A stretch of 64,000 bases of DNA from an uncultured Planctomycetales bacterium (GCA_964545575.1 CAZJFL010000001.1:221812-285811); one strand, 5' to 3'; counted from the first letter of the stretch, positions 21,001 to 55,700 are shown. A program made the numbers and translations. Notes: generated from the letters alone by a model not told the origin.

Positions 21001-24000
21001 ATGCTGCCGCCACAAATTCATAAAGCTCATCGTCCTTGGCAAATTTTTTACCTCTGATTACATTTAAGTTGGCGATAAGTGACTCCAGCTCCTCTGAAAG
21101 CTTATAGCGCAACGCAAACGGGTTCCGCGCCATAAAAGGACGGTCTTCGTTGGCCCTGAACCTCCCCATCACCCAAGACGGATTATCATCTTCATGCTTA
21201 GGGACAACCCGATTCATCTGCTGAAGCGCCTGCGCAGTAAATCCATCCTTATCTATACGCGAAAGTATTTCTCGGATTTTACCTTCCTCTACTTGCATGT
21301 TTTCGGCCACTGCCTTTATATGCGCCTGCGCAGACGGCTGCCGCTTACGCCGTGCGTGTGCACTCTCCCGCCTTATGCGTAATCCTAAAACCGTGCCTAC
21401 TGTGGCCAGCGCGCCGAGGCCAAGAATCAATTCCTGCGTCGCGCTTAAATCTATGCCGCAATATAAAACCAGCGTCACCAACCCCAAGCCCAACAGCCCC
21501 CTGCCGCTGCCGGGCAGCCGGCTCCGGATTTCGGCTAGCACATCTTTTGCTTCAGACGCCTCGCCCTCGCCGCGGGAATTGCCGTTGTCGCGGGAGATGG
21601 GATAAGGCTTATTTCCGTTATCGTTAGACACATTATTCTTTATTAGGTCATGTAAATACCAAAATAAATTAAAAGCGGCATCCGCAAAGAAAAGATACGC
21701 CACCAGAGGCATACTTTTAATTAAAGTGGCTACGCCTAAGGCGGCTGGCAATAGAATTGTGGCTAATCTCATTAAAGTTATCGAAAGCGCTTTCTCTTCA
21801 GCGAAAATAAAAATTGGCAATGCTCCGGGCCCTTTGGGTGGCCTTCGATTATTAAGAAGCCATAGGATAATAGTAATAGCTATGCTTAAGCCTGATAGCG
21901 AACTCATAAATAAATAATTTTTATCCGTAATTCCTATAAGATAACGCGCTACAATAGGCGGCAAGGCTATTCCCGACAGAATAATTAATGGAATTATAAA
22001 GGCGTACTTATGCCTGCTTATAAAGTTCTTGAGCCTTGAGGCAAGAGAAGGCGTAAGCGCTGCCTTCTCCTGCTTAGTGAGCGAGATTTGGCTTTGCGAT
22101 GAGAAGATTTCTGGCTTTCTCTCGGATGAACTCGGCTGCCTCGTTGCTGACTTCAACCCAGTTGCCAGCGCTCGTCCTGCCGCAGACTTTGCCGTCGGGC
22201 AGAATGAAGAAGTCATACTCATAGGACCAGTGGTCGTATTTGGCAGACGCCCATAACCCGCCTTTAATAGGAGTGACTCTACAAACCTCAAGATTCTGGA
22301 AGTTACACATCGGACACCTCCTTTTGTTTGTCTTGCGGCTAATAATTCTCTATCACTCTTAAGCAGCGCCTGATGGTCGGCGAAACTGTGGATATAGAAT
22401 ACTGCCGTGGCTATCAGCGGCAGAAAAGCCGACGCTTTATCTATACTGCCCAATATGTAGGCTGCCGCAAGAGATACTATCGACATGATAAAACTCACCA
22501 GCGGCCCGGCGCGTAAAGATTTCCTTGCCAGTAAATGTCCGAATTCATGGATGCCCCAGCCAACCAGTGAAATAATCAAGGAGGCCACAACGGAAAATGC
22601 CAGCCAGACCTGCCAGAGAGCGGCATATTTATTTCCCGGGCCAAGGCAGATAAAGAGCGTGCCGATTACCGCCCCCGCCAGCCACCCGCCCAAGAGGTAT
22701 TTCCAGTTCAGCTGCGGCTTAAGCGCCTCGTCCTCGCCGCGGTAGGCGGTATATTTATCCGCTACAGCAGAAAGGTATTCTGCAACATGCGCACCTACCG
22801 GATACCGCCCGCTTACTTCTATGGGCCATTTTACGGTCAAAAGGAACGCACAATCTTTAGTAGGACTGTAATTGCGTACGGTATAATAATTCCCCTGCCC
22901 CTTAAAGATAATCAAATCTGCCTGCTGCCAAGCGCGGAAAAATTCCGGAGAAATACGCGCTAAATCAGTGCCTAAGGCAATAGTGCCGGTGCCAATAATT
23001 TTTAAGCCAGCAAAATCCCGGCCAAAAATTTTCCGGATGCCTTCATCTGCCAACAGCCCTGCCAAATCTTCTCTTGTCGCATCATTAGAAGCGGGAAGCG
23101 ATTTCCCTGCAAAAGTTACCTTATGGCCAAGATTAAGCAGCTCGTTTATCAACGCTAAATCAAAAACGTCTTCGCCTACGTTATCGACTACGTACACAAT
23201 ATTCATCTGCTCGCGGAGCAATCTTTCTTTTAATTTTTCCGTATCATTCTTTTTCCAAAAATCAGCCGCGGCAAAATCACTTTCTATAATTTTCTCTACT
23301 AAAGAGAAGCCATCGGAAAGGAGCGCTTCGCGTATACGCGGCTCTGATAAATCTAAAATATTTCCGATTACGCACAAACGTAATGCCGCTTCCAAACGAT
23401 CTGGCGCCTTATTAATCAAAGTTAGCGCCTTGCCTAAAAGTGAGAATGCGGCAGTACGGATACCTTGTTTATACTGCCAGTCGGGATCAGCGAATTCCAC
23501 GGCAATGCGTATAATCTCTAAATCTACCTCTAAGACTTCATAGCTGGTCCAATCTTTTATCCGCGGCATTGCTAAGAATGTTTTGATGGCAGAGGCAAAT
23601 TTCTCCCTTACCTTTTCGTCAGGAACCGCCCTTTCCAAAAGCCTAAGATCGGTTTCACGACGCCGGTTGATTAAGTTAGTGGCAGAATCGCTACCTGCGA
23701 GCATATCTCTTATAAATGTACTGCCGTAATGATATTCGCTTGTCGGATGAGCTATCGCATTTAGCACATAGAGCTTGCTGCGGTCAAAGTATCTAATGAC
23801 ATTTTCTACGAACTCTTCAGGGCTAATTTTTCCCGCTAAAAAGCTCCTTCTCAATAATAGCGCGCTATCTTCAAAATCTTCCCGCAACAGGGCATTAACA
23901 TCTACCGGTGTCAGTAATAAAATGGCTTTGGATACCACCCAGCGCAAAGGATCAAGGTTTAACGCTGCTATATCAATACCATATTGGGCGCAAATACTAG

Positions 24001-27000
24001 ACACCCTCCGCGAAAGCTGGGCGTGTTCAGAATTATCTATATTGATAGTCCTGCTAAAATTATCCAGAACTGCCATGCGATTTTCTCCATCCGGCAGGAA
24101 TTGCAAACATTCTCTGGCGATATCATCTTCGTGTTCTTCCAGTAAATAGAAATAAAGGTTGCGGATTCCTTCCTCCGTATCCCTGATCGCCTCGCCATTA
24201 TCATCGCTTAGGCCTTTAACGATGTGGCTGATGAGCTCATGATACAGGATTTCGATTTGTTTGGCTTCGGGAAGGCTAAAGAAATACGGATGGAAATATA
24301 CGGTCTTGGAGGCAATATTGCATACGGCGACGTGGACTTTGTCGCCTACAGTAAAGTAAGGTTCGAAGTTAGTGACAATCAGCTGCCAGTCAGATAACTC
24401 CGGCGGCGCGCGGCCAAAAAACTGCTCCAGCAATTCTAAGGCCTTCCTCATCATATCTTCATCCCGGCTTCCTAATCTGGAGCCTTTAAGCGATGGAACG
24501 CGGAAACCTTCTCCCCGCGCCGCATACCAGAGATTAGGACGGAAGTTACGCTGCCGTTCTAGAAAATCCCGGGGCACTTCTAGCGGATGGGCGTTGGGTT
24601 CATCGGCATCCTTTACTTCTTTATTAATGACTACCCCTGAATCTTTCGTTACTGTACCAACTACGCCCCCGACTTTTCTTGCCAAAACAACCTGACCACC
24701 CTGCGCTGCTAAATCCTCGGCAGCCTCTGTTATATTTCTTCTTGCCACTCTTAAGTCTTTTGCGTTCCTGGTATAGCGCATTACCTGGCCCTCTTCATCG
24801 ATGGACTGGCCTGTTTCATCTACCATATCTTCTAAATCATCAATGGCATTACGCAACGCCTCTTTATCATGTGCCACTGCCAACAGGTATTGCGCCAGGC
24901 TTAAGCCTTTAATCCTGGCGATAGATGCAGAAATCCAGGGAGCGCTCAAGCCCACAGACTGCCTGTCACCCTCTACTAACTCTAATCTGACGTAACCACA
25001 CTGATATTGGCGCAGCCTGGCGAAACTTGCGCTCAAGCTGGCAAGGGAATTTATGAATTCCTGCTTTTCTTTGTCCCCGTAAGTATCAAGATCCAAAGCC
25101 GCTAGACCGCAGGCAGCCAGATGTATTCTCTTTAACACAGCCTTTTCTGCGTCAGAAAGGCGCTCATAAATCCCAAAAAGCTGTCTTCTATATTCCATCT
25201 TGTAGCAGGAAGCATCATTAGCTGCTCCGCCCCGCGCTCTAAATTCACCTTCGCTATAGATAAGACAACGCTGCATATCCATATTTCCGTAATGCTGGGG
25301 TTTATTCTCATCATTATCCTCGAGCAGTTGCGCAGTGGCATTACTGACGCCTAATTTGCTCAGCCGCCTATTTAACTCATCCCTGTAGCGAGAAACCTGC
25401 ACCCTAGAAAGATTCCCCTGATAATACAGGGTGAGCCGGTCGATATCGCAACCTACCATCCATAAGCCCAGATTAAACGAGCAAAGCATCGAGCTTATCT
25501 CGCTGATCCTCGCCCCGGTCTCGCTTTCTAATTTCTGCATAAAATCTTTTAAGGCAGCTATGATCGCCTCTGTGCCTTCGGGAAATCCGTATTCGCTCTG
25601 CGCTACTACATCACCGTTATCTACCGACCCGCCGTTGTCGCGGGAGCCGTTGTTAGAATCACTATCCCGGCGTTCTAACGAAGCGATGTAATCTAGCTTT
25701 CTCTGTATCTTGCCTGCCAAAGATGGCTGGAGCCTTACTACTTCTACCCAGTCCGCCCTGGTCTCGCTAAATTTTCCTAAGATAGCATGGGCATTACCGC
25801 GATTATAAAGTGCCTCAATATCTTCAGGATCTATTTTAAGTGCTGAGCTAAACCAATTGACGGCTTCACTAAACTCGCGCGCTTGCGCATAGATAATCCC
25901 GGTATTCACATGGGCATCGAGATTCTGCTGGTCCAATGCAATCGTCTGGGAATAATCGGAAAGGGCTTCCTTGGTATAGCCATTATCTAAATAGCTTAGC
26001 CCCCGGTTAAAGTATACGTTTGGATTTTGTGGATCAAACCCTAAAGCCCGGTTAAAGCAATTTAAGGCATTCTTAAAATCTCCTGCCTTAGAATATCTGA
26101 CACCCATTTTATCTAACACAGTGCAAATTAGGCCATCTTTATCCATTAACCTGATACGCCGATGCATATCTGTGACTCTGCCTAAATTAGAAAGATACTG
26201 ACTGCCAGACTCAGCCTTAAACTCATCTTCTAAGACAAAAATATGGCTTACTTTATGATATGCTAAATCTACCAACGCCTTCATATTGTTAGCAAGATTA
26301 AGTAATATGGCTACATGCGAAACCCGCTTGCCCCATATGTTTACGGTAATACTGATGGGGATTACCGTTAAGCCGACCGCTTTTGCGATGACAAAGAAAA
26401 GCTGGGTGAACCCTACGCAATCAGCCTTCCTCTGCTCAACTATATCTTCAAGATCAAACGCGCTTGCTTCTTCCATATCGGATTCTATTGCGGGATTAAG
26501 GGTATCGAAAATCTTTGCTGCGACCTTCACTTCCGCGCGAACTTTCCTTTCTTCGTTGCCACTTTGCCTTACATCCTCAAGCAAACCTTTAAGCTCCAAA
26601 ATATCTATCCCTAAGCTATCTAAAAACTCTCCTATGCTCTCGGATACCCTCTGGGGATTATCTATGTAACTTAACTCCTCAAGCTGAGCACGAAGTAATT
26701 TTTGCGCTCTGACCCTTGCTGTATCATCTAAAGAGCCGCCGTTGTCCACCGAGCCGGCGCTATCGCGGGCAGAACATGCCAATAAGGCTGCTCCCACCAA
26801 TGCCGCATCTACCATTTCTTTTACTTTTGGAATCTCATCGGCTAATATCACAACAAAATCATAGCTTTTATCTGTAAGTTCTTTTTGCAGTGCGGGCAAG
26901 GCATACCGGCGCGCCGGCTTACTTAACAGCCACCCTCCCAAAATAAATATGCTTGTTCCTTTCACGTCCTGCCAGAACTGAGCTTCTAAGCGAGGCTCTT

Positions 27001-30000
27001 TGACTACTCCTTTTCTGGGTTCTCCCTGCACGCCTCCTTCATAAGCCATAATCATAGTCCTTGCAATGGCTTCTCCCGCTTTTTGATAATAACCCCGTGC
27101 TATATCTCTTGCTTCCAAGTCTTCGCTTTCCGTCAACTCAGATATAAATTCTCCGGTTAACGCCTCAGCGCCAAATTTATGGAATAAATATTCGTTCTTC
27201 TTTGCTTGATATTCAAATCCTTTACCAGTTGCCAAATCTTCCGGTAGTAAGCATCCCGGGATTACCCTACCGCCTTCGCCTTTTTCTAAGATTATATCGA
27301 AGAACTGTTGCGGGCCCGAGATAGGTATTATTTGGCCATTCCTGATAATAAAAGCTCCTGCGCCAAAGCCGCTACCCGGAATAAATCCGGAAATTTTTGC
27401 GCCTTCCTTAACTACTTTTCCTATTTGTGTAAGGCTCTCTTTATAGACTAAAAGGCAATGCGCCATAGCTAAAACATGCGCCACTCCATCATTATTAACT
27501 ACCGCACGCCATTCAGAATTTGTTATCCTAGATAATTTTTTGGATAACTCCTGCGCTAATGTAAAATTCTCCAAGTCCGGCACATTAGGACTCGTTCCAT
27601 GGTAAGGCACGCCTTCTTCCAGCCAAGCCCCGGGGGCAGATACGCCTATTGTTTTTATCAAAGGGTAATTGTATCTCTCTCTAATCTCTGAAAGGCCGGC
27701 CCGTAAAATCGTCACGATTTCTTCTAAGGTAGCTTCTATATCAGGGACTTCTTTTCCCCCTACAGTTTTTGTGGGGCTCTTTATAATTTTCGGGTCAAAA
27801 AGAAGCTCGGGAACGCCGATAATTCTTCCGTTAATTATTGACGCTTTTACAAATGCTACCCTTGCGTGAGTTCCTCCTATATCAATTACAGGGATTATTT
27901 TTGTTGCGATATCCGCCAATGTTGTAAACTCGATATTTAATCTATGTTCAGTATAATCTAAGATGGCCTCGCTTTCCCGGATATCTTCCCACCCCAATTT
28001 AAATATTCTTCTTTCTCCCAATGCCTCAAAAAACTTCTGGCTTACGATAATATATAATTTTGCTGCATCGCCAATGGGGGCGCCGATCCAATACCTAGCA
28101 ACGCGGCTGCCTTTCTTATAAATAAAACCGAGGATGTGCGAGCCAGCTAAAGTCTTACTGTAACATTCTAGGGTATTAAATTCTTCTCCGGCATCATTGC
28201 TATTTCCTGTGGCTTCATATTCGAGCGATGTTTTATCCCCGTCATCCATAAGGGTAAATGTAAAGTGCGCTTCTATAGCTGGACTAAATTTTTTGTTTCT
28301 GAAGTGGCCAACGTATTCAAAAGACACCGCACCCTCACTCTTTATCGCCACATCTTTACCATCTTCAGAATCCCAATTGCTACCCAAAGGAATAAAACGG
28401 TATCCGTCATATCTGCTATGCCTACGCATAATCTCTTCTTGATGATCTTTGTCTATCGGGTTTCTCTTCCCCTCCGCGCCGAAGGCGGTATCGCAGGAAC
28501 CGCCGTTGTCCACCGAGCCGCCGGTATCGCGGGAGGACCCCGTCCTTAAATAGGCCTTATTTACATCCTGCACCCAGATAATATCGGCTTCCTTATTTAT
28601 AAATCCACGGAGATCCTGAAACTGGAATTGCTCCGAGGTAAATTCATTTATGACTTCGTCCACAGTTTTTCCTCTGGCTAATTCTTTGGCTAATTTGCGC
28701 TCAAGCCTGACCTTAGAATCCTCAAAGGTTATGGCTATCTTCAGGTCCAATAATTCTGTGATTCTCCGGTCTTCGGCTAATTTAAAAGTTCCGGAAATAA
28801 TAAATACATCTAGGTCCATAGCTATACTTCTACCTTCCATCTCAAAAGGACTTCTTTGATTAACTTTTATTAAAAGGTCCCTTATAATAGCTAAAAATGT
28901 TCTGTATTGGGGATCCTGAGGACCTATAAAAGCATCGAAGACTTCGGAACCTATATTTACGGATACCGCCTTGATACCGGCGGCATTCAAAGAAGAATCT
29001 AAATGGTCTGTTAATGTCTTTTTGCCGGAACACGGAAGACCGAATATTCCGATGATTAAAGGCCTCTTTGTGAGCTTCGGTATTAAATCCAATAACATCG
29101 CGATGAAATGCTCATCCTGCTGATCTTCGGACCCACCGTTGTCCACGGCGCCGCCGTTGTCCACCGAGCCGGCGTTGCCGCGGGTCATGAATAATTCTAA
29201 TCTCAAATCATATTTCCAAACCGCCTCTTTCATAACCCCGAAGAATTTAAAGGCAGCCTTAAATATGCCTCTTAAGTCAGTAGGATTCTTCAGGAAAACA
29301 GACAGTTGCGGATTAGCAAATAAAAGATACATTGGCTTACCAGTAGCTATCTTTAATTCAGGAATCTCTGTGGCGGGTTCAGCAAATCTTATCACTGCAG
29401 GATTACCATATCTGGGATTAAACTGTATTGTAATCTTGCCTTTCTCATTCCTTATAATATGGTATGCGTAGCCCCTGCGTGACTCTATTTCGCTTGAATC
29501 AGTCAAGACCTCGGGAGATTCAGTAATGCCTTCTTTGCCTCCGACCTCGCGGCAAATCCAGTTAGCTATCACCAAAGGCGCGTTGCCTCTATTGATTACA
29601 CGATGGGAATAATTAGGATTGATCATTACCTTTTCCCCCTGCTTGGCAAAGGTAATGATGGCTTCAAACCGGCAGGTTTCCGGGTTAATTCCCTGCTGAA
29701 TGTAAATAGCCTCACCATACCAGACCTCACATACCTCAGGATAGATATCTCCCTTTACAGAAATTGGATTTTGGTGCCCTCTAGTCATGATAAACTCAGG
29801 ATCCAGCTCCTTATTGATTACCCCGGGCAGCAGGACGATAAGATCAAATCTTATATTATTCTTCTTAATAGCCCCTCTATCGGATTTCAGGCCTACGTCG
29901 CGGTAGCCATAATAAACCACTCTGTCCCGCTCCTGCTTTGCTACTTGGGGCTCAGCGATGCTGTAGGCAATATCTTTAAGCGTCCGGCTCCATTTACCCT

Positions 30001-33000
30001 CAGAGGCAACCTCTTCGCCAAGTGCGATTTCGCCGGTGGCCAAATCAAGGGTTACCGGCAGGCCGGCAAAACCGGAAAGGTCAACCGCCTTGCTGGCCGA
30101 CCCGCCGTTGTCCACCGAGCCGCCTTGACCAGCTTGCAATTGCGCTCTTATTTTATCTGTTTTAAGCCCGCCCTTTAGCGGCCTTCTGGCTTGGTGACCT
30201 AAATCCGCAAAGGCACACGGCACGATCAGGCTCTCGTCTAAATCAAAGATCCTGGCTATACTAAGGCCGATTTGATATCTGCTGAGCTGTTGCGGCCCGC
30301 TGATATGATAAATGCCGGATGCGTTCTGCGCGATCAACCGCTCTATCGCATCGGCTAAACACCCCACCGCTATAGGATTGGTGTACATATCGTCAGCCAG
30401 CCTGATCTGGCGGCCCTGGCGACAAGCGCCGGAGACTTGTGCCGTAAACTTTGAGCCTAAGCCCAAGATCAGGGTCGGCCTGATAATCAAATAATTAGAG
30501 CGCGTATAGCGGATGGATTTTTCCGCATCTAATTTTATTCTACCGTACTCATTCACAGGAATAGTAACATCACTTTCTGAATAAGGCCCGTTTTCTCCGT
30601 CAAAAACATAATCTGAAGAGATGAATACAAGCTTGGCGCCGATAAATTTACTTATTTCAGAGATATTCTCTGTGCCTAATACTTGTATTTGAAATACTTC
30701 TTGGGGGTGTTCCTCGCAATAATCTATATCTACCATGGAAGCTGCGTGAATAACCACCTTAGGCCGTAATTTGGTTAATAAAGCGCGCACTGCCTTTGCA
30801 TCTCTTACGTCCAAGAAATAACCATTGTCAACTTTATTTCGATAGTATGTCCCGCTGGTCTTATAACCGGCTGCGGATAATTTACGCATCAGTTCCTTGC
30901 CAAGAAACCCTGACGCACCGATCACTAATATATCTACAGCTTTAGCCGTCTCTACCTCCTGCTTCAAGACGCCTTGAGATTCCAGGAATTCAGCAAGCAA
31001 CATAGTGCCGATAGCATAATATGCCAAAGAGTGCCTGCCGGTAGGATCCTGGCTGAGGCGGTTTACAGCATCGGCAATAAAATGCGTGGCTTCGGCAAAA
31101 AGCGCTTTGGCTAACCAGTCCGGCTCATCTTTTAAGAGTTTATTCAGCGTAGAATGATGAGCCAACAGCCCGGGCAAAGCAGCTCTGGCTTTCAGGAAAT
31201 TCGCAACTGCAGACTCGCTATCCCAGTATCCAAGCTCCATACGGAAATCCTCGTCTTCCTGCCAAATTCCTAATTCAAAGCGGTTATTGCGCACCAATTC
31301 CAATAAGATTGAATGCAGTATCTTGCCCAGCTCATAAGTAATATCTATCTGCGTAGGTATGCTGCGAGGTAAATCTACTCCGCGGATGTCTATCAGGCGT
31401 AAGGCTCCTCCTTCTGTCCTTAACACATTCCTTAATAATAAATCTCCGTGGGCGTAACGCGGGATAAAGCCCGGTTTTAATTTCTCTAATAACCCCGGCT
31501 GGGATTTCAAAAGAGCAAGCAGACGGGGTAAATTCGGATATTTTCTGCCATTGATATAAATATTTCTTGCCGCGAATAAATCCTCAAATAAATACGAAAT
31601 ATCCCTGTATCGATTGTTTTGTATCGTAATTGCCCTGTCTTTTATCAGGCGGCTGTAGGTAGCGGTTGTCCTATCGGTAAAGAGGCCCAGGCGGTAATCC
31701 ATCCTCTTTAGATGAATCCTATCTACGTAATCTTGGGGAACTTCTAACCTGCCTTGAGAATAAACAAAATCGCAAAGTAAATCTAGAAGACCGGATATCG
31801 TCTCTAAAAACTCTTCTGCCGCGGTAGGCGGATGATTAAGAAAATAGAAAGGTAAAGGTTCTGCATTCTCGATATATTGAGATGTGTAAAATACATAGCC
31901 CTCGCCTTCAACATAATCATAAACTTCAGGAATCAAAACTTCCGCCTCAGTAGGTAAAGTTTCTTTTAATTCCTTCAATCTCTTGTATTGGGCTTTTAGC
32001 CACGCTACACCATTGGCGCCGATGCCTTCCCAGTCAGAATATTTTAATATTACTATTCTACCCTCGCCATCTCTTACCAGGAAGGTCGTGGCTGAACTTC
32101 CGCCGTTTCTGATAACGTCTAAAATTTCGTAATGCTGCGTAACCTCCGGAGGCAGGCGCTCAGATAAAGCGTTTCTATTTCTAAACCCGTGGTAGACGCT
32201 TCCACCGTTATCCACCGAGCCAGTGTTGTCCACTGAGCCGTCTGAAATAACCGGCTTTTCATTTCTCGCAGGCGCAAATATCGCTCTTAATCTCTCGATG
32301 GCCTCCTGAGGGCTTAATCCCTGATTATTATGCAAAACATACGTTCCGGATATAAAGATACCGGCGCCTTTTTTGATCGCCTCAATGATCGTTTCCCCAT
32401 TAATGCCACCCTGAACCATAACCGGCTTAAAGAACTCCCTTGCCCGTAGCTGGTCAATCTTAGCTAAAGCTTCTAACTCAGTAGTACCGCCTATCTTGGC
32501 AGTAGGTATTGCGGAAACTACTATGCGGTCAACTTCGGATAATATTTCTTCCGGAACCGCGCTTATCTGCTCATCCGGCTCAATCACTACGCCTGCTTTT
32601 ATGCCGAGGGATTTCAGGTAGCGAATTCTCCTTAAAAGCCTTGCCTTATCTCTTCCAAAGGCGTCAAACTGCAAGTTGATGCTTCTGACTATACCTGTTA
32701 CCGCAAATGCCCTCAGGTACTTCTTAGATGGCTGCCAAGATAAGAGATGCACATCAAAAGGAAAATCCACACCTGCCAAGCTCATCTTCTCGATTAACTG
32801 CGGATTAAATTGGGCGGTGTTATCGGGATATTCGGTATTAGCATTTTCTCTGCCGGTGCGCTCAAAATAGGCGTTGGAGCGGACATCAAAATGTATCCCA
32901 TCTGCACCTGCCTCCTGGAGTATAAGGGCGGCACCAATTAAAACCTCATCGCTTACTTTACCCAATACTGATAGTGGCACATAAATTTTATAATTTGACT

Positions 33001-36000
33001 GGCCGTAAGCATCGGTGACAACGGTTAAATCCGGCCGCACTGTTATTGTCTGCAGATAATGTATAAAGGAAGGAGTATTTATCCTCCAGAATACCTCCGC
33101 CACCCTATCAATAGGCGAATGCCGGGCATCGCGCGGCAGGCGGCGCAAAATGCCCACCGAGGGCTTAGCCAACATCAGGATCTTTAAATCAAAATACCGG
33201 CTATATTTTCTGGTCAAAAGGTAATTCCCTTCAATGATGACCACAGTGGAGCGGTCAATGGTAATTTTTTCTTTGTGCGTTAATCCACCTCCCTCATATT
33301 TATCATAAAGCTCAGTTAAATCCAGGGTTAGGCTTTCTTCTCTGCCAGCGTTAAATTGCCTTATTTTTCCCAGTGCTTCTTTTTCAAACTTCTCTGCCCT
33401 TAGCGAAATCTCGTTATCATTAAGGCTAAATCCCGTTGCCCCTATCCTGCTTAATTCCGCGTCTTGCCGGGCATATCTATTTTGGCGACTGTCAATAAAC
33501 CAGTCGCGGCTGATCACCACGGCTTTGCCGCCCGCTCTCCTGATTAATTCTGCAGCCTTTTCTGCGGCGGTGGTTTTAAAAGCCCCGGAGTTGCCGTCAA
33601 TGGCAACCACTAAAGCTCTTCCTTCTGGCTTTCTTGATAAAGCCGCGGTTATCGCGTTCACAATTCTGGCGATGTAATCAACCGGGCTGGTGACCACAGC
33701 ACTCAAACTGCTCACGCGCTGCTCATACTCTGCATCAAACCTATCTTGCTGCGCCTGGTAATTCTGCATGCAGTTTTTCTGATAAAAGCCCAGCGTCACC
33801 CACCCAATCGCCTCTTCAAAGAACTGCTGTAGTTGCGGGCCGGAATTCTCGTTGTCCAGCTCGATGTTTACGCCCCATTGCGCCTGTAAGCTTTGCTTCT
33901 TCAGTTTGGCTAAGAATGCACGGCACTTGGGGTCATCGATATTACCCAAAAATTCCTCTACTCCTTTTGCAGCCTTCAGTAGGACCCAGATATTGGCTAA
34001 TCTCTGCATCATCGTCAGTTCCCCAAAAGTATATTCCTCTCCCGGAACCGGAATATCGCGAATATACTTCCTGACAACTACAAAAGTCTCAAAGGCGCTT
34101 AACAGGCCGTCCTGAATCTGCTGGTGCTTCCAGTGCTGGCCATCCGGCTCCAGGACACAGGCGGTATCTAACCTAAGCAGTCTGCGGATCTCTTTTGCCC
34201 AATAGCGGCTGCAACCCAAGAACTGGGTATCTGAACCATAAACTAAAAGGTCAGCGTAAGTCTTATTGTAATCGGCAGCCAGGATTAAAAGACAGGCATA
34301 AACACAAGCAGCATTCTGCCTGACTTCCTCATAGGTAATACCTTTAAGCTCAGCCATTCTTCTAAGGAGCAAGTCAAATTTTCCCTGATTTAAACCGCCG
34401 CTTCTATAGGCATAACCGTAATCTAAGGTACCGCCCTGAAAACCGGCCCTGTATTCTTCGCCGGAAGAAGCAGCAGTTCTTAAGCTGGCTAATATTTCGC
34501 TCACGCCCTTGCCTTGGGAGCGCTTAGCCTTAAAATAAGGCACGAAGCCGCTGAGCACCGTATCTTTACTTACCCAGACGCCCGGCTCATCGGCAAAATT
34601 GACGCCCATGCGGTTTCCGGCAATGGCAATGCCGACATTAAACATAGCTACCAGCTGGCCGATTTCTTCTTTTGCGGGCAAGACTACTTCTATCACCGAG
34701 AAACCGCTCTGACGCAATCTCTCAATTCTGGCCTGATAGCGATTATCTTGGGGCCCTAGTTTAAAATGCACAAAGAAATTCCGCTGGGGCTTATAGTAAG
34801 CCGGCTCTAAATCTTCTTCCTCGCTTAAAATAACTGGGATAACACCTCTCCTGGTTCCCTGGGAATCTTTTTTACCTAAGGACTCGGCAGTAATCTGGCC
34901 AAAGAAAGTAGATAAAGCCTTTAATTCCTCGGGCAACACATAAGTAATATGGGTTTTGCCGTGCGTTTCCATAAAGGCAATGAGCAAGCCAAAGAATAAT
35001 CCGGGGTTAATGACAGTGTTGTCTTCGCCTAATATCTTGGGATTTTGGCAGATAGACATCATCTTTGCTCCGGATTCTGTTACTGCTTCTAACAGCCAAT
35101 CGCCTGCAAAAGCTGCAGGGACCAGGCCTGGCTCGGCAAAGAATGAAGCATAGCGGCCGCCTGTGGCTTGGTCATGGTCAATGACAGTGCGATAACATCT
35201 TTCCGGCTTTTCTGTGGTGCGCAAGACATCTTTGGCATCGCCGTCTTTCTCTTTAGGATCAGCCACAGCCACGAAGTGGCTGCCGGTTTTTGCTTTGTCG
35301 CCGCCGTAGAGATCCAGTAATTTCTGATAAAAATAATCTTTCAGTTTGGTGATCTCTACAGTCGTCCAGGACTTACTGATCACAAAGAAAACCGTATGCT
35401 CAAGGTCAAGCTTCTCTTCTAATTCCCGAATGACCTGCGGCTCAACCGAACCTAAGATATAAATATTTTGCAGGCCAAAGATGCCTTTTAAAGCCACCAT
35501 CCCATTACCGGAACCGCCAATACCTAAAATTACTCCTGTGGTCAGACCGCCTGCTTTTAATTCAGCGGAGAGCTTTGTTAATTCAGGGATCCTTGCTCCC
35601 TGGATACGGCTTAAGATATCCACCCAGCCTAAACGACTCTTATTGTCTATCCAGTCCTTCGTTACTGTATCCCACCAGGTAAGTTTTCCGGAGAATAACT
35701 TGGGAACCAAGCCTTCTCTTTCTGCCTGCGTTACATAATCTCTTAGGTCAACGCTCTCTTTATCGGATAAACGCAGTTTAACCTCTAAAAGCGTAGAGAC
35801 TACTGCGCTTAATCCGCCGTTATCATGGCTACTGGCTAAAGCTGTCCCTTCAGCTAATCTTTGTAATTGAGCGGCACAAGATGAGCAGAAACCTGCTGCA
35901 GTGCGGTCCAATTCATCTGCGCTATGGCTTAAATGCATTACGCAAGAAGGAACATTGCAATGCAGGCGTAATTCGGTAGGAATAATGAATAAGCCACCGA

Positions 36001-39000
36001 TAAGATGCCCTACTTCGTGAATAGCATTTTTGAGGTTACGGCTAATGAAGGTATCTCTATCGGGATGCTGGAACCTGTATGCAGAATTGATAATGATATT
36101 TTTGGAGGGGTTGGTGCGGCCAAAAAGATAATTATATGCCTTACCGTCTTTACACAGGCCGGTAATATCTGCTTCGGTAATAACAAGAGTGGGGATTTTC
36201 TGTCTGGCGCCTTTAAAGAAATAAGGAAGTACAAATTGCTTGCGCTTTGCATCATAATAACCACCGATATTACTGACGATATCTTCAAATTTTACAGGAG
36301 AATCAATTATGACGTTTATATTGAAGGGGAATGCCTCGGTTATTCCTTTGGCAATCAACTGGGCTAATTCTATAACGGTATCGTGCCCTTGTTCTGTCGC
36401 GAAAGCAGGAATAATCTTTAAGAAAGGCGGAGCGCGGGAGGAATAAGGCAACCTCTCTACAGAAGCCATAATACCGCTTTCATCTCTTGGCGCTACGCCG
36501 CTTGGCTCCAGAGGCACATCCGCAAATAAGCCACCGTTGTCGCAAGAGCCGCCGTTATCAAAGGCACCTTCTAAATTAAACCCGCGCGTAAACCTGCGGA
36601 TAGATTCTTTGATCCTATCGATTACGTATTGCTGGGGATCTTTTACTCCGGATTCCCTGGCCTGAGCGTAAAGCTCCTGGCGCGCGGCTCTCACTCTCTC
36701 ATTATTCTGCACATAACGTCCGCAGCCTAAAACAACCTCCCGAAGCTGCGCTTCTCTTAAGCTGGCGATATCCTCAACCCCGGGGAACCATTTCCTCCAT
36801 CTTTCTGTTCCGCATAAAGCCTCTTCTACGATAGCTAAAAATCCACCTTTACCTGTTAGTTGTTCCAACTCCTCTAAGGCCAAGTATTCTTGGCGGGAAA
36901 ACTCCGGCCCTACATTTGCACAGGCTATCCCTGCCCCGGGCACCAGCGCCAGTTGCTCTTCTTGCATATAGTCAGAATTATGCTGTTTAAGATGTAACCC
37001 GTACCTAGCTGCCAAGTTAAAAAGCCTGACTACGCCCTCGGTATGGAATGTACCGAGCTGGTGGGAATCCAACACCTGGGTACCGGTATCAATAACCAGG
37101 TAAACTATGTTCGCCCAAACATAGTCCAACCCTTTCTCATCCAGTTTCTCCCGCAATAACCTTATATACTCTCCTACTGCATCCGGAGAATCCAGGACAC
37201 TGCCGGAGATGTCAGAACCGACCTCGTAAACAACCGGCGGCATATTCTGCTCTAACCGGTAAGCCTCACAGTCAGAGATTAAATCAACGGCCCTTTCCAC
37301 CATCTCGCCGATACTTACCAACGAGCCTTTCTTCTCGTAATCTAAAGTTACGTCTATATGGAGAATATCAAAGCCGGCATCTAAATCAGCGCGGTAGGTG
37401 CGCTTAGCATTTGCCATAGCTTGGCCTAAAGATAATAATTTATCTTGAGGCCTCTGCCAAGGGCCACCGTGGTCTCGCTCAATGAATACGCGCCCGCTAT
37501 AACCTACCTCAGAGGCGATTCTGCGGATTATAGTTACCAACTCTGCCTGGTTCCACCCCGTATATGAGCCTTCCACGTCAACCTGCCTTGGAGTAGCGAT
37601 AAATATAGGAATACAACCGTCTTCTTTTGCGACTTCAAGATAAGCCCTGATAATATCTTCGGACATCGGACAGACAGCAAGCAGCGTCATTTTCTTGCCC
37701 CTCTTGGCTTCCTGGCTTTTTACCTGTGCCCACATCCTAACAGATGCGCTCAACTGCGCATATTTGTCTAAAAATTCATTGACCAATATTACACTACGGA
37801 TATAAAATGCTTTTGCCCTTCTCTGGTCATGAATCCGCGTTAAAACATACCCGGCGAAATTTAAAGCGCAAATCAATTGCATTCTAAGCTGCCAATAGGG
37901 CTCGGTCTGGGAAAGATATGCTTTTACGCCTGACTTTGCTAAAATATCCTGGAACCTCTCCTCTAGCGCCTCGAACGCTTCCCATAGATAGCTCTCCTTG
38001 GCAAAGGAGAAATCAACGACGGTATTATCGCCTTGACGTATAGCTAAAGTATAAAGGCCTTTCTCCAATAGATAAAATTTACCGAATATGCCTTCTGCCA
38101 GCTTGCTTAAGTCATAGACTAAATCTCCCCGCTCATCCCCTCTGGGGTCAACAAATAAGAACTTGCTTCCTTCGGTCAGAATATTATGTAAACCCAGGTC
38201 GCCGTGATTAATACACAATGATAATGGATTAAGCAAAAGGAATAACTCCGGATTATCCTCCCATTCTCTTAATATGCGGGGAAGATTCCTGTACTTAGTG
38301 CCATTTATAATTAAATATTCGGACTGTAATAGAGATTGAAGATACGGCGCCCGCCTTAAGGCTTCTTCCAACCTGCTTCCCACCTTATCTAAGGTTATCC
38401 CCTTGAGATAACCGGCAGGGGCTTTAGCCTTGCTATCCGATACAATATCTCTCATATATGCGCTTAAGACATCCTGGATAATGCCACATGTTTCTTCCAT
38501 TGCCAGAGAGCCTTGCGCTATTCTATCGGCTAAGCTCTTAGCCTGCGAGTAATAAGGCATCTCATAATAAACATTCCCCTGCTCCAAGGAATAACTTAAC
38601 ACCCGCGGGAAATACCCTTGGAGCCTATCAGGTAGGTCCAAAATCCATCTTATCTCTCTTATCAAATCCTCTTCTGCGAATTCATACGCCTCTTTGCGAA
38701 CTATATATTTACCCTCTCTGTTTATAAGTAAAACTCTAGAGCAGGATTTACGCTCTATCACTCTTGCTATCTCTTTACGGGATACCCGGCGGGATGGGCC
38801 TACATAAGCAGAGCCGAATCTTTGAATTTCGGCTACTTTTTGTTTAAGGTCAGGGGCTTTTGAAAATATGCTTCTGGCGTTGAAAGAATCCGCCCCTGCC
38901 TCTACGACTCTTTTATAAGTATCTTCGGTAATGCCTCCGTCTATTTCTATGCTTACCCGGATATTCCTTTGCTGTATTAATCTTTTTAAGCTGCGTATCT

Positions 39001-42000
39001 TCTCTGTCATCCCGGGAATAAATGTGCGCCCTCCGCCTCCGGGCACAACGCACATAATCATTACCGTCATCATTCTGGCATCGAAATACCGCCAGAGGCT
39101 ATCTAAAGCAGAAATCGGGGTTTCCGGATTAAGAGAAACGCCCAGATATAAATCTCTCTGTTTGATATAATCGATCATTGCTTCCGCCTCGCCCAAAGAA
39201 GAAAAAGCCTCATAAGGCAATATAACTTTGTCTCTTCCGGGCTTTAACCCGGCGTTTATTAATCTATCTATCAAAGCTTTATCCGGATTTACTGCCCAAA
39301 GGTGCACATCCAGCGGCAACCCTATGCTGGATATTATCCTGATATCATCTGCGCAGTCCAAGATATCGCCTTGAGTCAACTTCCCGTCAAAATGGTCTAC
39401 GTGCACAGAATCCATGCCACACTCTTTAACCTGCTCAATTTCCTTTCTTAAACCGCTCTTATCCGCGTAGAGTATAGAATATGCCAGTGACAGGGAGCCG
39501 CCCTTACCGAGAAGCTTGACTGAAGCCCGCTTGATCTTATAGGCCTGGTAAGCTTTAGCAAAGTTATGGACCTTGGCCTGCCAGGGGTCTTTGCGGACGA
39601 TATCCGTAGTATCCAAGAAATCACCGGCAATAAGGAGGCTGAGCACTTCGTCTTTATCTAGTAAGGGGTTGATATCTTTGACAAATCTTTCAAAGGCAGC
39701 CTCGTCCGGCTGCAGTTGGGATATAGAATAAAGGGCGCTATGAAGCCTTATTACTTCTATCAAAACATCCCTGCTTGATAAATCTTTAGCTAATTCTGGG
39801 TTTTCTCTGAGCATTGCCGTTGATGCTCCGGCATGGTTTGGATACAGCTCGAGCATTAGTCCCTCTTCGGCAACTATCTGCGGCTTGATTCTGGACTTTC
39901 CGATATCATGCAGCAGGATGAAGAATTCGAAGAATAACCTGTTCCGCGGGTTAAATAATATGCTACGGTATTCCTGAGGTATGGATTGAAGGGCAGTGGC
40001 GGTATTTAGAGTATCGAGCATAACCCGGAGGTGGTCTATAAGTCTGGGCCCTTCGGTGTGTAATGGCAAAGGTAAATTAGGTATATCAAAACAATTATGG
40101 TATTCTTGAGACAAGCGGGTACAAATAAGAGCTCCTATATCGGTAGAACCACTCCTTACCTCTTCGCTGAAAGCAATGTCAAAGGCACCGCCGTTGTCCA
40201 CCGAGCCACCAATGAGTCCATCCAAATATTTATCCCATTTTGAAAAATCTATTCTTTCATACTGCCGCATCTTCCCGAAGAATAAGGTGGCTATCCTCTT
40301 AAGCGCTTCTTCGCTATAGCCCTCTGCGCGGCAGATTATCTTTGGTTCGGTTCCCGAGGCCCGCGCCAATGCCCAGCCATCGCTAAAAACAATCCTTAGG
40401 CCGTCGGTCTCATCGATATTATAATCTAATCTGCGGAAATACTCTTTGACCTCGCTGATAATGCGCTTCTTTTCTTCATTGGCATTATCGCCGGTCACGG
40501 TAAGACGAAACTCTCTGGTAGAAGGATAATGCGGTATTTCGTAAGCCGCAGCCTGGACGGTTGTGCCCTCTTTCCTTACCTTAGCCACAAAGCGCAATAA
40601 CTTAGCTGCGGTATAAATGCCGTCATCAATATTATGATTATCCGCAAAGAAGAAGTGGCCGGACTGCTCTCCGCCCATAATCGCGTTAACCTCTCCCATC
40701 TTCCTCTTAATATGGGAGAACCCTGTTTTCCATCTGATGGGCTTGCCACCGGCGTCTTTTACCACTTTTACTACCGCTTCCGTGCATTTGGCATCAAAAA
40801 CAACCGCCCTGCCGGGATTCTCTGCTAAGATGTCCCGGCTTAACATTGCTAAAATAATATCTCCGGAAACATCCTGCGCCATATTATCCACCACTACCAA
40901 CCTGTCAGCATCCCCGTCAAAAGCTAGGCCGATATCTTCTCCGCCTTCTCTTACCGCGTTAATCAGGCACTGCATATTTTCGGCTAATGTAGGATCGGGA
41001 GAATTATTTACACAATTCGGGAAATTGCCGTCGGCTACCCCGTTTATCAATCGCACTTGAGCGCCCAAAGCGGAAAATATTTTTGCTAAAGGCAGGGTGG
41101 CGGCGACGCCATTTAAAACATCAATCACGATTTTTAACCCGCTTAAATTCCCTGCTGCCTGAGATAATAAATCCGCATAGGCAGAAACCATATCTTTTTC
41201 TTCTATCTGGCCTGTGCCAGAGATAAAGCATCCGCTTTCTGCGATTTCGCGGATTCTCTTTAATTGCTCCCTACTGGTATTGACTATGCCTATGGTCGGT
41301 TTAAATCCGCCGTAATGGGCGGGATTATGACTTGAAGTAACCATAATGCCGGCATCAGCATTGTATAAAGGGACGGAATAAGAGAGCATCCCTGTAGAAA
41401 CAGTACCTAAATCAATGACTTTGACTCCGCTGGCTACTAATGCCTTAACCGTATCCTGATGTATTCTGGGTGAAGTAAGGCGGACATCATGCCCTACTGT
41501 TATCACTAATTTTCTCTTATTTAAAGCAGCAGCAGTAAAAGTAGCGAATGCTCTGGCTATGCGCGCGACCACATCCGTAGTCAATGTCTCCTCGGCATGG
41601 GCAGCGCGGATATCATTTTCCACAAAGATTCCGGCATCGACAGGCGCATATCCTAAATCTACCCATTGGCCGTCCGAACTCTCTATATTAGCCAATACTT
41701 GCTCTACTATACCTAAATACTCCTCTGCTGCCTTAGGCCCCTTATCCTTGGCGTTGATGAATAATCTGGAAGGTTTCTCCTCAGCAATATCCGGTCCGAC
41801 ATTAACCGTTGAATCCACCGCTAAAGCAGCTTCGCGGTCATTGCCTTGCGTATCAAACGAATCTCCGAAGAAGATAAAAGATTCTCTGCTTAGACCCAAA
41901 ATCTCTTCCGCTTTCCTAACCGCAAAGCCCTTATGTATTCCCGCCGGCAATATGTCAATAGCAGTCATCCCGGCAATTCTAATTTCCACCTCTATGCCTT

Positions 42001-52700: not shown

Positions 52701-55700
52701 TGCCAGCTTAAGATGCGCGGCGCGGATTTACCTCTTTCCAGGGCCACCGTAACCTCTTCGGCCACTCCGGACTTACTGATCATATCTTTTAATCTCCAGC
52801 TCCAGTTGGTGATGGAGTCAAAGTAGTAAGCGCTCTTGGCGGTGGATAAATCTCTGACGGCGGCCAATCCCTGCTGATAATCCGCATCCGCAACGATGCC
52901 GAACTGTTTATTGGCGTAGACGTTAAGGAGAATATCCAGCTGGTTGAGGCGGCTGGCGAAATATTCGTAATTTACCCTGCGGCAGGCAGCTTCATCCGGA
53001 TAGATCGGATGGCTGGTCTCGTGGAGGATTAAATCTAAGAGGGCGATAAAGAAGGCGTAAGAATCCTCATTTGAGAGATTAAACGGAGGCGCGCGGATAG
53101 GCAGACGTTTATCTGAGATAATCTGCGGCGCAATATATTCGCCCATGGACTGGCCTCTTCTATCCTGATAGACAATAAGGTCTAAAGTAGAAACGGGCAA
53201 GCCCAAAACCTTGATGATTTCATTAAGATATAAGCTGAAATTTGCCGTGTCTTTAGTATCAACTTCGGCTTTTTCACCGGGGATGTCAGCAAGGCGAGTG
53301 GGAGACTTATCTTCGTCATCTCTAGTGCCTGTTATCCACCAAGGGTCATTTGGAGTATAATTTATTGCTGGCGGTATTTCTTCTTCTGAGCCTTTATCCT
53401 CTCTAGAAAATCTATAATTTGGACACTGCTCACAACCATCCCGATAAACATCGTTAGCCAAAGTACAAGTCAATGGACTTAATCCATCTCTGCAATGCAC
53501 CCTCTCTTCATTATTTCTACGGACTTCTGTATCATTTTCAACAGTTTGTTTTAAGGTACGTCGCCAAATAGTAATAGACCGGATAGCCAAGAATAAACCA
53601 ACTGCAATACCTACAACAACAAATATCCCTCCTATAATAGGCATAACTCCGATATTCTTAACGACGCCGGAACAGCCAGTTAAAAATAGCGTTGCGGTAA
53701 AAATAGAAATCCAGATCAGAATAGATTTTAACGTTGTCGAAGAATCACTACTCCCCTTTGTTCCAGCTGGCTTCTCACGATTTACTTCGCTATCTGATTT
53801 AGGAATAAATTTCTCGGCTACTTTTGCCATCCCGTCACCCAAAACCTTCTTTATATAACCTTGCCCCAGCTCTGTAGTGCCCTTTTCTACTTGTTTATAG
53901 GTCTTTTCGGCTAGTTCATAAAGCTGTTGCGCATCACTATCTCTCCCATCTAATTTAAATCTCTGCGCCATCTCAAAGAGAATTCTACTAAGAGCGAAAT
54001 CTAAATCCATTTTAAGCCCGGATACAAAATCTTTTATACTCTTAAACTTAAAATTATAAGCTTGGTCGTTCTTAAATCCACCCTTATCAATACTATCCGC
54101 TCTTACTAGTCTCGTAGCATAGTTAGCCAAAACTCGTCTCATATGATAAAACTTATTTATCTCCAGCTCTTCAGCTATTCTGGCGCGATAGGCCTCAGGT
54201 ATCTGTTGAATCTGTTTTTTCACGTAAGCATTCAGATTTAACTTAATGATTGGCTTTAATACTAAGGTCGTTGCCAAGAAATCCCAGAAGATAAAATAAG
54301 GCATGGCTAATAAACCGTGCAATATTGCTTTGCTATATTGTTCACCCTTTAAGCCGGCAATAACTAGCGCGGCGGCAAATATACTGGCAATAATCAAACC
54401 GAACGGCGCAGGGATAGGGATAAGGAAATTGTGGATGATGAATGCCAGGGCGCTTCCGCCAAAGATAATTCCGGGGATCCGCGGACGAGAATGCCCGTTC
54501 TTTAAGAACGGACCGAAGATATAGGCAAAAGGTAATACATAGAATAATAGCTGGGCTACGACAGCATAAGGATGGAAAGGAGCAAAAATGACGATTCCCA
54601 GAAGTATCACTCCCCAGGTGATAGAGGGCCTAAAAATTTCATATAATTCTTTAAAAGATTGAGAAGTAAGGATTGCGCCTTTTGCCCCTTTACTGAACTC
54701 TCCGCTCACCCCCTCCAAGGCATCGCGCATCTTCTTTTCCTGGATGGCGTTCAGAGGTAAGAAGGTGAAGATAAGACTCCAGAATCTTTGTCTATAGGCG
54801 GCGTATCCCTTCCAGAATCCTAGCTTGCTGGTCAAAGTCCTGATGCCGCCGGCGGTAATGGACTGGGAAAGGATAAAATACAGGCCGATAAAGAATAAAG
54901 GAAGCGCCAGATATGAGAACGGTGAGAAGGAAAGGAATAAGGCAAAGATGAATATTAATTCATTGTAACGCGGGATAATCGGCTCATTGAAATAATGGTC
55001 ATTGTTCAAGAAAAGCGTCAGTTTCTGCGTCCAATGCAGATTCTCAGCTCTTAGCATCTGCTGATAGTGGACAGATAATGCATCATCAAGCACTAAACCG
55101 CCAAACCTGTCTACGAAATTAGGCATCCCGAAGTTCTCTTTTTCCCTGGCTCTTCCTAAGATCATCAGCGGACTATATTCGGTATAGTAGCCGGCCTTAG
55201 AAAATTCGTTGCCCATCGCAGAATCCTCAATATTAGACATATAGACGGCATACGACCTCATTACCGACGCCCGGATAATCATCGGGCCATAACAGCTGGT
55301 GGTACCGATTCTTGGCTCAACAGCAAGCATCCTGGTATTCCAGTTATTCTCGGCTACGCTCTGGTCTTTGTTAGTGGCGGTCATGCCTTCATCGGCAACC
55401 TGCAGATTAGTCAAAACCACGCCCAGTTTAGGATTATTAGTAAATTTGTAGGCAATAAAAGGCAGGCAGAAAGCATCCGCGGGGAACAAGGTATGCTCCC
55501 AGTCAGTATTGAAGATAACGCCGTCTAAATCATTGATAAACTTAAAGGCAAAACCCCAGGAGTTGCCCTTAGCCAACCACGCTGCCCCGGCAGGATTGAC
55601 ATCGGTGAAATCAGCGATGGCCATCGGCTTACGCTCGTTCGGGTTGTTCGGATTAAGCGCCCAAGGACCGCCACATTCATCATATAATTTCTGATGCAAC

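Follow-up and report, generated by a model that had tools for sequence, protein, structure and literature searches.

Are the giant proteins of Candidatus Omnitrophota kept as single chains or cut into pieces? This is an explicit open question, and the missing cleavage points block even structure prediction of the parts. Cleavage of these proteins, which reach about 147,000 amino acids (aa) in recent reports, has been proposed on the basis of their C39 and S8 domains, with the cleavage points stated to be unknown (West-Roberts et al., bioRxiv 10.1101/2023.11.21.568195). The same question is raised by a stretch of 64,000 nucleotides recorded as DNA of an uncultured Planctomycetales bacterium (GCA_964545575.1 CAZJFL010000001.1:221812-285811; hereafter, the window), which covers 64 kb from the interior of a giant open reading frame (ORF) of the 'multi-enzyme metabolic / Archaeovorin-like' type, encoding many enzymes and many transmembrane segments. 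Three candidate processing elements are identified here in this ORF, namely an archaemetzincin domain bracketed by linkers, an Omnitrophota-specific membrane module that carries the motifs HExGH and HxFAD, and a junction linker of 7-8 residues. The idea of cleavage is already known for this class of proteins; the HExGH/HxFAD module is previously undescribed, and the junction motif is a candidate. If any of these is a processing element, giant ORFs would become parsable into mature products, and a further family of intramembrane-type metalloproteases would be added. Should they be inert, intact membrane-tethered enzyme scaffolds would gain support.

The giant reading frame and its HExxH motifs

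The minus strand of the window (frame 0 of the reverse complement) consists of 21,333 codons without a stop (window 2-64000) and is open past both ends, as against 712-1,637 stops in each of the remaining five frames; no long ORF is listed in the window because the frame is open at both ends. In this single chain, enzymes of sugar-phosphate and nucleotide-sugar metabolism are joined, along with many membrane segments. The protein resembles the giant Omnitrophota proteins (Archaeovorins and 'multi-enzyme metabolic clusters') in the size of the ORF (over 20 kb), in its numerous transmembrane segments, in the presence of NUDIX, PGM/PMM, PGI, PPDK, ROK and TPR domains, and in that most of the sequence is unique while the architecture is conserved. 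The lineage of the giant gene is most likely Candidatus Omnitrophota. Exact 50-mers from the window had no match in the genome_contigs and metagenome_contigs collections.

Exactly five HExxH motifs are found in the giant frame, all on the minus strand (residues are counted along this frame):

Window 53009-53023, minus strand, aa 3660: HETSH, 187 aa past a pair of transmembrane segments and about 220 aa before a ROK-like domain
Window 48515-48529, minus strand, aa 5158: HEFGH, about 160 aa before a CofD-like region
Window 44024-44038, minus strand, aa 6655: HEIFH, 70 aa past a transmembrane segment, immediately ahead of another hydrophobic helix, with the CofD domain 55 aa further on
Window 36005-36019, minus strand, aa 9328: HEVGH, within the archaemetzincin domain
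Window 22535-22549, minus strand, aa 13818-13822: HEFGH, at the end of helix 2 of the membrane module

The composition of the protein predicts 0.39 such motifs (Poisson P about 5e-5 for five), none of 3,000 residue shuffles contained five or more (the highest count was four), and Glu occupies the second place in 5 of the 13 HxxxH motifs of the protein, compared with 0-1 occurrences for each of the control motifs HxxEH, HDxxH, HKxxH and EHxxH. The enrichment of HExxH is therefore real. A preliminary description of this locus had listed the same five in-frame motifs, with low-end coordinates that are right to within 4 bases, and had estimated that about one HExxH or fewer would occur by chance. 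Pairwise Smith-Waterman comparisons of the five contexts, with shuffles, revealed no similarity among them; the sites are heterogeneous and do not form one class, and each is therefore treated separately below.

The archaemetzincin module

The site at aa 9328 is the active-site motif of what its alignments identify as a complete, genuine archaemetzincin (MEROPS family M54) domain, the activity of which is a prediction. In addition to the HEVGH motif listed above, the following features define it:

Window 35858-36358, minus strand, aa 9215-9381: archaemetzincin (M54) domain, from profile and PDB matches
Window 35876-36019, minus strand, aa 9328-9375: M54 zinc signature, from alignment to archaemetzincins

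The NCBIfam model NF033823 ('archmetzin') is matched from position 9 to position 170 of its 170 positions (E 2.2e-22), with a score of 79.8 bits that lies under the cut-off of 145, and Pfam PF07998 scores 54.8 bits, above its cut-off of 24.4, while covering only profile positions 107-194. The archaemetzincins of known structure (3zvs, 4axq, 2x7m and 3lmc) are matched with E-values of 5e-10 to 2e-8 and with all motif residues aligned. A 'non-proteolytic archaemetzincin-like' NCBIfam model was matched as well, more weakly. No relatives of the module were found in a word-indexed protein collection.

Archaemetzincins are marked by HExxHxxGxxHC-x4-CxM-x17-CxxC, in which the third zinc ligand follows the Gly by 3 residues (PMC3427221). 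In the window, this signature reads HEVGHLIG-GLFIIPTELRL-HC-NVPS-C-V-M-x16-CSSC. Each of its elements (H, E, H, G, HC, CxM, CxxC) is aligned, and the part that comprises the Cys4 site and the Met-turn (HC-NVPS-C-V-M-x16-C-S-S-C) aligns without gaps with AfAmzA (3zvs). Gly+3 is occupied by Phe, and the His homologous to the third ligand, that of the HC dipeptide, is kept but displaced by an insertion of 9 residues. The archaemetzincin-like call of the preliminary description is accordingly supported at the profile level, with the third-ligand His, the Met-turn and the Cys4 site all present. The check for a third ligand that it had proposed succeeded at this site, the insertion aside, and failed at the three sites at aa 3660, 5158 and 6655, where none is identifiable.

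The domain shares with archaemetzincins such as AmzA, AMZ-tk and human AMZ1/2 the full-length profile match, HExxHxxG, HC, CxM and the second CxxC. It differs from them in its insertion between Gly and His, in its score under the NCBIfam cut-off and in its setting: archaemetzincins are free proteins of 160-200 aa, whereas the domain in the window is embedded in a chain of over 21,000 aa. One member of the family, AMZ-tk, degrades casein and has been shown to undergo Zn-dependent self-cleavage (PMC4681839).

The membrane HExGH/HxFAD module

The HEFGH motif at aa 13818 lies between hydrophobic segments at aa 13795-13813 and 13829-13853, in a module with the following layout:

Window 22346-22726, minus strand, aa 13759-13885: four-helix membrane module, from hydrophobic segments, homologues, alignment and AlphaFold2
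Start of helix 3, minus strand: R-A-G-P-L-V-S
Window 22376-22390, minus strand, aa 13871-13875: H-S-F-A-D, at the end of helix 4

An AlphaFold2 model built from four sequences reproduces this layout of four helices, at a predicted local distance difference test score (pLDDT) of only 59.5. An exhaustive search of 1.84 billion representative sequences identified two long proteins that match the module, one with two copies (P0003) and one with a single copy (P0029); the other matches obtained in this search were to the neighbouring Fic domain only. When 185,579 species genomes were scanned for the pattern, five module loci emerged, all five in metagenome-assembled genomes (MAGs) of Candidatus Omnitrophota and all inside long ORFs ended by contig ends (≥1,159 to ≥4,368 aa). 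All three named proteins that carry the module are NCBI entries from Omnitrophota MAGs, annotated by their enzyme domains. In the word-indexed protein collection, the region of this site gave only one ARMT1 protein, and an alignment of four module copies gave nothing. As judged from these searches, the module is new, previously unannotated and found only in long ORFs of Candidatus Omnitrophota.

The eight aligned copies, with 29-37% identity to the copy in the window, invariably contain L..Y...G...G before helix 1, G..HExGH, GP..S and HxFAD. This invariance in diverged copies indicates strong purifying selection at the aa 13818 site. The neighbours of the module are soluble enzyme domains: ARMT1 and Fic in the window, PALP in one of the Omnitrophota loci (L003), and enzyme regions on both sides of each of the two copies in P0003. 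Basic residues (RK..R) follow HExGH in the loop, from which we infer that both motifs are cytoplasmic, on the same side as the flanking enzymes. A metal site of the His/His/(His or Asp) kind could be built from HExGH and HxFAD together. The invariant Glu of HExGH and the H-x-x-x-D pair, one helix turn apart, are what a catalytic zinc site would require and exceed the needs of a structural one.

In the preliminary description, this site was taken for a membrane-embedded, site-2-protease-like motif. The membrane context holds, given the flanking hydrophobic segments and the location in helix 2, but membership in the M50 family fails in every profile test; the site is no detectable M50 or site-2 protease site, with no profile or fold match and without NxxPxxxLDG. 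Nor does any Pfam family, M48 included, match the members of the module. The similarity to site-2 proteases (S2P; MEROPS M50; RseP, SpoIVFB, MjS2P) consists in HExGH located at a transmembrane helix and directly followed by basic residues (HEFGHLLARK in the window, HEFGHFWVARR in RseP), and in a later helix with a second conserved acidic/His motif that is a possible third ligand. In contrast to these proteases, the module has HxFAD (and GPxxS) in place of NxxPxxxLDG, comprises four helices in about 125 aa and is always located between soluble modules of giant ORFs. The M48 peptidases (HtpX, Ste24) combine HExxH, two transmembrane helices and an [E]-x-x-A-D ligand motif. The order of elements in the module resembles this layout, whereas its second motif is H-x-F-A-D, in which the presumed third ligand is His, not Glu. 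The module is probably a membrane-embedded zinc hydrolase that acts like S2P or HtpX-type enzymes, being demonstrably a member of neither group, with metal binding predicted from the conserved motifs.

The junction linker

In the soluble enzyme stretch of the chain, ten junctions (aa 5979-12797) carry a linker, G-S-V-D-N-G-G-S, which consists of one to three hexapeptide-like units x-x-D-[N/T]-G-G:

Window 36530-36568, minus strand, aa 9145-9157: double unit G-A-F-D-N-G-G-S-C-D-N-G-G, 28 aa past GatZ, with the M54 module following at once
Window 35813-35833, minus strand, aa 9390-9396: unit S-S-H-D-N-G-G, 9 aa past the M54 domain
Window 25610-46066, minus strand: eight other sites, at aa 5979, 7932, 10588/10594, 11294, 11611/11617, 11822/11828, 12410/12416 and 12785/12791
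Window 26736-26755, 28500-28519, 29151-29170, 30102-30121 and 40188-40207, minus strand: five exact copies of the 20-mer GGCTCGGTGGACAACGGCGG, which encodes GSVDNGG
Window 29133-29152, 32202-32221 and 46047-46066, minus strand: three near copies of the 20-mer, with 2-3 bases different

The copies lie 6-33 aa past the ends of the PGM, GatZ, M54, ribulose-phosphate epimerase (RPE) and RmlD domains, and two of them bracket the M54 module of about 240 aa. The conserved flexible linkers mentioned in the preliminary description are hence a defined motif at domain junctions, present on both sides of M54.

The chance expectation for the 20-mer GGCTCGGTGGACAACGGCGG is 0. It draws on rare codons of the gene (TCG accounts for 9% of Ser codons, GAC and AAC for 30% and 34% of the codons for the respective residues; P about 4e-4 per copy given the peptide) and has a GC content of about 70%, compared with 46% for the gene; the flanks of the copies are unrelated. 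The two copies that flank M54 encode the same D-N-G-G with different codons, a sign that selection acts on the peptide. Beside any role of the peptide, the identical 20-mer points to recent spread within the gene, to a scar left by recombination or at a junction during module accretion, or to a signal at the RNA level. It was not found in the viral_contigs collection, and a literature search with the linker peptide retrieved unrelated MS2 coat sequences only. A further DNGG, at aa 5355, was rejected as a linker because it belongs to the CofD-type D-x-G-G-S/R-x-G motif. To consider the linker a double-glycine (C39-type) leader site is speculation: position -4 is occupied by Asp, which is not hydrophobic, and there is no C39 domain within the window.

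The three orphan HExxH sites

The sites at aa 3660, 5158 and 6655 could not be assigned to any family. Comparison with Pfam, NCBIfam, PHROGs and PADLOC (E-values up to 10) and with PDB sequences gave only noise, and no relatives were found, including in a metagenome scan with aa 5060-5760. An AlphaFold2 single-sequence model of aa 5040-5320 (pLDDT 37.7) was unusable and was kept out of the fold search. At all three sites, aliphatic residues precede the first His and strand-like segments are located upstream, a weak and qualitative feature; the contexts are compatible with a zincin helix.

It seems doubtful that all three are chance motifs in histidine-containing helices with no role in metal binding. 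The failure to match any family, structure or homologue, and the dissimilarity of the sites to one another and to the two assigned sites, favor chance; against it, three motifs remain where 0.39 are expected, a number reached in 23 of 3,000 shuffles, and the aliphatic residues and upstream strands are zincin-like. The spacing of the orphan motifs is nearly equal (1,498 and 1,497 aa). A hidden super-repeat was considered as its source and rejected, there being no excess diagonal similarity, no BLAST self-match and no shared domain order, so that the spacing, too, is in line with chance.

Look-alike orphan HExxH motifs are present in long ORFs of other Omnitrophota, at aa 900 of one ORF (L005, SRSIFDNRLALLHEISH) and at aa 2244 of another protein (P0007, LLLSDRFKHEFFH). 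The strand-plus-helix context upstream of these two sites is similar to that of the orphan sites in the window, and their joint alignment with the orphan sites is incoherent, a further point for chance. A Cys/His-rich stretch, H-C-x8-C-x11-C-x2-C (window about 53410-53500, minus strand, aa 3500-3530), is located between the transmembrane pair and HETSH and could be a small zinc-ribbon-like element.

Is the chain processed by its own modules?

Under the mechanism that we propose, both candidate modules, M54 and membrane HExGH/HxFAD, would be active zinc peptidases that cut the nascent megaprotein at the junctions between modules. In the soluble enzyme stretch (aa ~5,980-12,800), the cuts would fall at the G-S-V-D-N-G-G-S linker, and single enzymes would be released or loosened. 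The parts are in place: an intact M54 domain flanked by the junction motif, a conserved metalloprotease-like module between enzymes, and motifs at domain boundaries. Moreover, the embedded candidate proteases keep their catalytic residues, namely H, E, H and H together with the Met-turn in M54 and the invariant HExGH in the membrane module. The preliminary description had offered inactive relics of fused proteins as an alternative to proteolytic maturation. Because the M54 signature is intact and the membrane site is under purifying selection in its homologues, these two sites are not decayed relics.

The anatomy of motifs, modules and linkers is very probably as described. The full statement, in which this anatomy is combined with the processing mechanism, is tentative, and actual self-processing of the chain appears possible rather than probable. 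The motifs and their excess, the M54 homology with its intact ligands, the conservation of the membrane module, and the placement and recurrence of the linker are shown by the data; metal binding by the membrane module, catalysis by either module, cleavage at the linkers and, indeed, any cleavage are what we infer.

A number of observations weigh against self-processing, plausible as it is. In the M54 domain, 9 residues inserted after the conserved Gly, ahead of the His that is the third ligand, break the HExxHxxGxxH spacing, the score remains under the cut-off of NF033823, and archaeal AmzA with complete motifs was inactive on every substrate tested (PMC3427221). For the membrane module, Pfam M50 profiles give E-values of 0.065-1.1, the best of them (0.065) on a stretch without HExxH; the module profile finds no solved M50 or other peptidase in the PDB; hhalign aligns it with E. 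coli RseP over 12 columns around HExGH only (the RseP query was entered by hand and then confirmed to be 7w6x_A, with 1,006 bits); comparison with an HtpX sequence entered by hand gives a probability of 2.8% with the second motif unaligned; and the structural model is of low confidence, with fold searches returning generic helix bundles. The identical rare-codon 20-nt core in five linker copies fits spread or a recombination scar equally well as a cleavage site, and neither the five related Omnitrophota loci nor the long proteins obtained contained the linker. Finally, the sole support for the orphan sites is their excess over the expected number.

One competitor of self-processing, itself rather unlikely, is an intact scaffold, in which the linkers are tethers and the modules are active on other substrates. 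These could be proteins of prey or of the envelope, or else membrane segments of this or other giant proteins that have misfolded, as in quality control of the HtpX/FtsH type. Unprocessed multi-enzyme chains are common elsewhere (AROM, fatty acid synthases, polyketide synthases and nonribosomal peptide synthetases), and a G/S/D/N-rich linker would suit a passive tether. In giant Omnitrophota proteins, peptidase domains 'alternatively may cleave other protein substrates' (bioRxiv 10.1101/2023.11.21.568195), and for an ORF of 39,678 aa, peptides were detected, with a 3-fold increase in attached cells, and no fragments were reported (PMC10066038). However, a passive tether does not require that a D-N-G-G core be conserved where the codons differ, two linker copies bracket the M54 module precisely, and the invariant HExGH/HxFAD module is always found between soluble modules, which is the placement that a cutter acting in cis needs. 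That the sites are non-proteolytic altogether, M54 being a captured archaeal-type gene, the membrane module a structural or regulatory metal site or an anchor, and the linkers recombination scars, is less likely still: it accommodates the inactivity of AmzA and the existence of CarG, a non-proteolytic relative of archaemetzincins with Gln in place of the catalytic Glu (PMC3427221), the weaker NCBIfam match to the non-proteolytic model, the third-ligand spacing upset by the insertion, the lack of a profile or fold link between the membrane module and any peptidase, and the five linker cores that are identical in DNA despite rare codons and have unrelated flanks, as a junction scar predicts, but M54 keeps the catalytic Glu and all ten signature residues, and all eight copies of the membrane module have the Glu of HExGH, which a His/His/Asp site of structural function alone would not require.

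Self-processing can also be framed more broadly, as a cellular polyprotein: an ORF of more than 64 kb in which a full set of sugar-phosphate enzymes is joined by standard junctions (the linker with its 20-nt core in the soluble stretch, and the membrane modules in other parts) and would be cut there by embedded zinc proteases, the archaemetzincin with its own sites on both sides and a member of a new intramembrane-type family. This is improbable; if true, part of the central metabolism of Omnitrophota would be expressed in the way RNA viruses express their proteomes. By analogy, viral polyproteins and MARTX toxins follow the same logic, with a protease module inside the chain and, on its flanks, copies of a short motif that is also present at other module junctions. 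MARTX toxins carry an internal cysteine protease domain. The putative proteases in the window, unlike those of viral polyproteins and MARTX toxins, are zinc enzymes, and the cargo consists of enzymes of central metabolism rather than replication proteins or toxins.

Compared with the published giant Omnitrophota proteins, for which cleavage was proposed from C39 and S8 domains, the window differs in that neither of these domains was seen. Specifically, no SecA DEAD-like or C39 domain was detected at E < 0.01 along the 21,333 aa that the window encodes, and the ORF extends past the window at both ends. M54, zinc or metallopeptidase modules and any junction motif go unmentioned for Omnitrophota giants in the text of West-Roberts et al. 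and in a 2026 survey.

HExxxH motifs

The giant ORF also contains three HExxxH motifs where 0.39 are expected. Two of these belong to a pair of paralogous membrane-associated modules (Smith-Waterman z = 11), and the third stands alone:

Window 16385-16402, minus strand, aa 15867: first GWHEGxGH module
Window 13139-13156, minus strand, aa 16949: second GWHEGxGH module
Window 24224-24241, minus strand, aa 13254: Y-HELISH-IVKG

The paralogous modules share an invariant G-W-H-E-G-x-G-H, with HExxxH spacing, followed about 120 aa on by Y-x-E...G-L-F-P-G-I. Kinship with the HExGH/HxFAD module was considered and rejected: despite a marginal pairwise score, hhalign assigned a probability of 1.5%. The site at aa 13254, with strand-like segments and TVYFHPYFFSLPEAKQIEILY upstream, looks like a zincin active-site helix plus one residue; no family matched this motif.

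Other domains and features of the giant ORF

Domains were assigned by Pfam profile search along the whole frame (E < 0.01 for the window-wide listing):

aa 3944-4227, minus strand: ROK
aa 4810-4874, minus strand: NUDIX
aa 6710-7076, minus strand: CofD
aa 7160-7391, minus strand: HAD/PMM
aa 7458-7905, minus strand: PGM_PMM I-IV
aa 8172-8376, minus strand: RPE, copy 1
aa 8763-9117, minus strand: GatZ/KbaZ
aa 9286-9381, minus strand: Peptidase_M54 (Pfam match)
aa 9487-9712, minus strand: PGI
aa 10131-10325, minus strand: PRK/uridine kinase
aa 10362-10555, minus strand: RPE, copy 2
aa 11023-11288, minus strand: RmlD
aa 11356-11487, minus strand: cupin-type GPI
aa 12635-12746, minus strand: TPR
aa 13455-13725, minus strand: ARMT1/DUF89
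aa 14254-14359, minus strand: Fic
aa 17323-17528, minus strand: enolase C-terminal domain
aa 20079-21080, minus strand: PPDK/PEP-utilising domains

Dozens of hydrophobic, transmembrane-like segments are distributed across aa 1970-3473, 6542-6683 and 13769-19430. No RNA families were found in the window in a comparison with Rfam. Several modules appear to have been duplicated internally in the distant past: aa 8554-8754 and 10805-11016 form a BLAST pair with 28% identity, two RPE domains are present, and a CofD-like region at aa ~5320-5460 forms a further pair with the CofD domain at aa 6710-7076.

The fused enzymes include an archaemetzincin, a cupin-type PGI, ARMT1/DUF89 and CofD, all of which are best known from archaea. 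The best PDB match of the ARMT1/DUF89 domain is 2g8l, deposited as a hypothetical protein and presumably from Pyrococcus. This archaeal-looking set of enzymes fits a lineage that is reported to prey on archaea.

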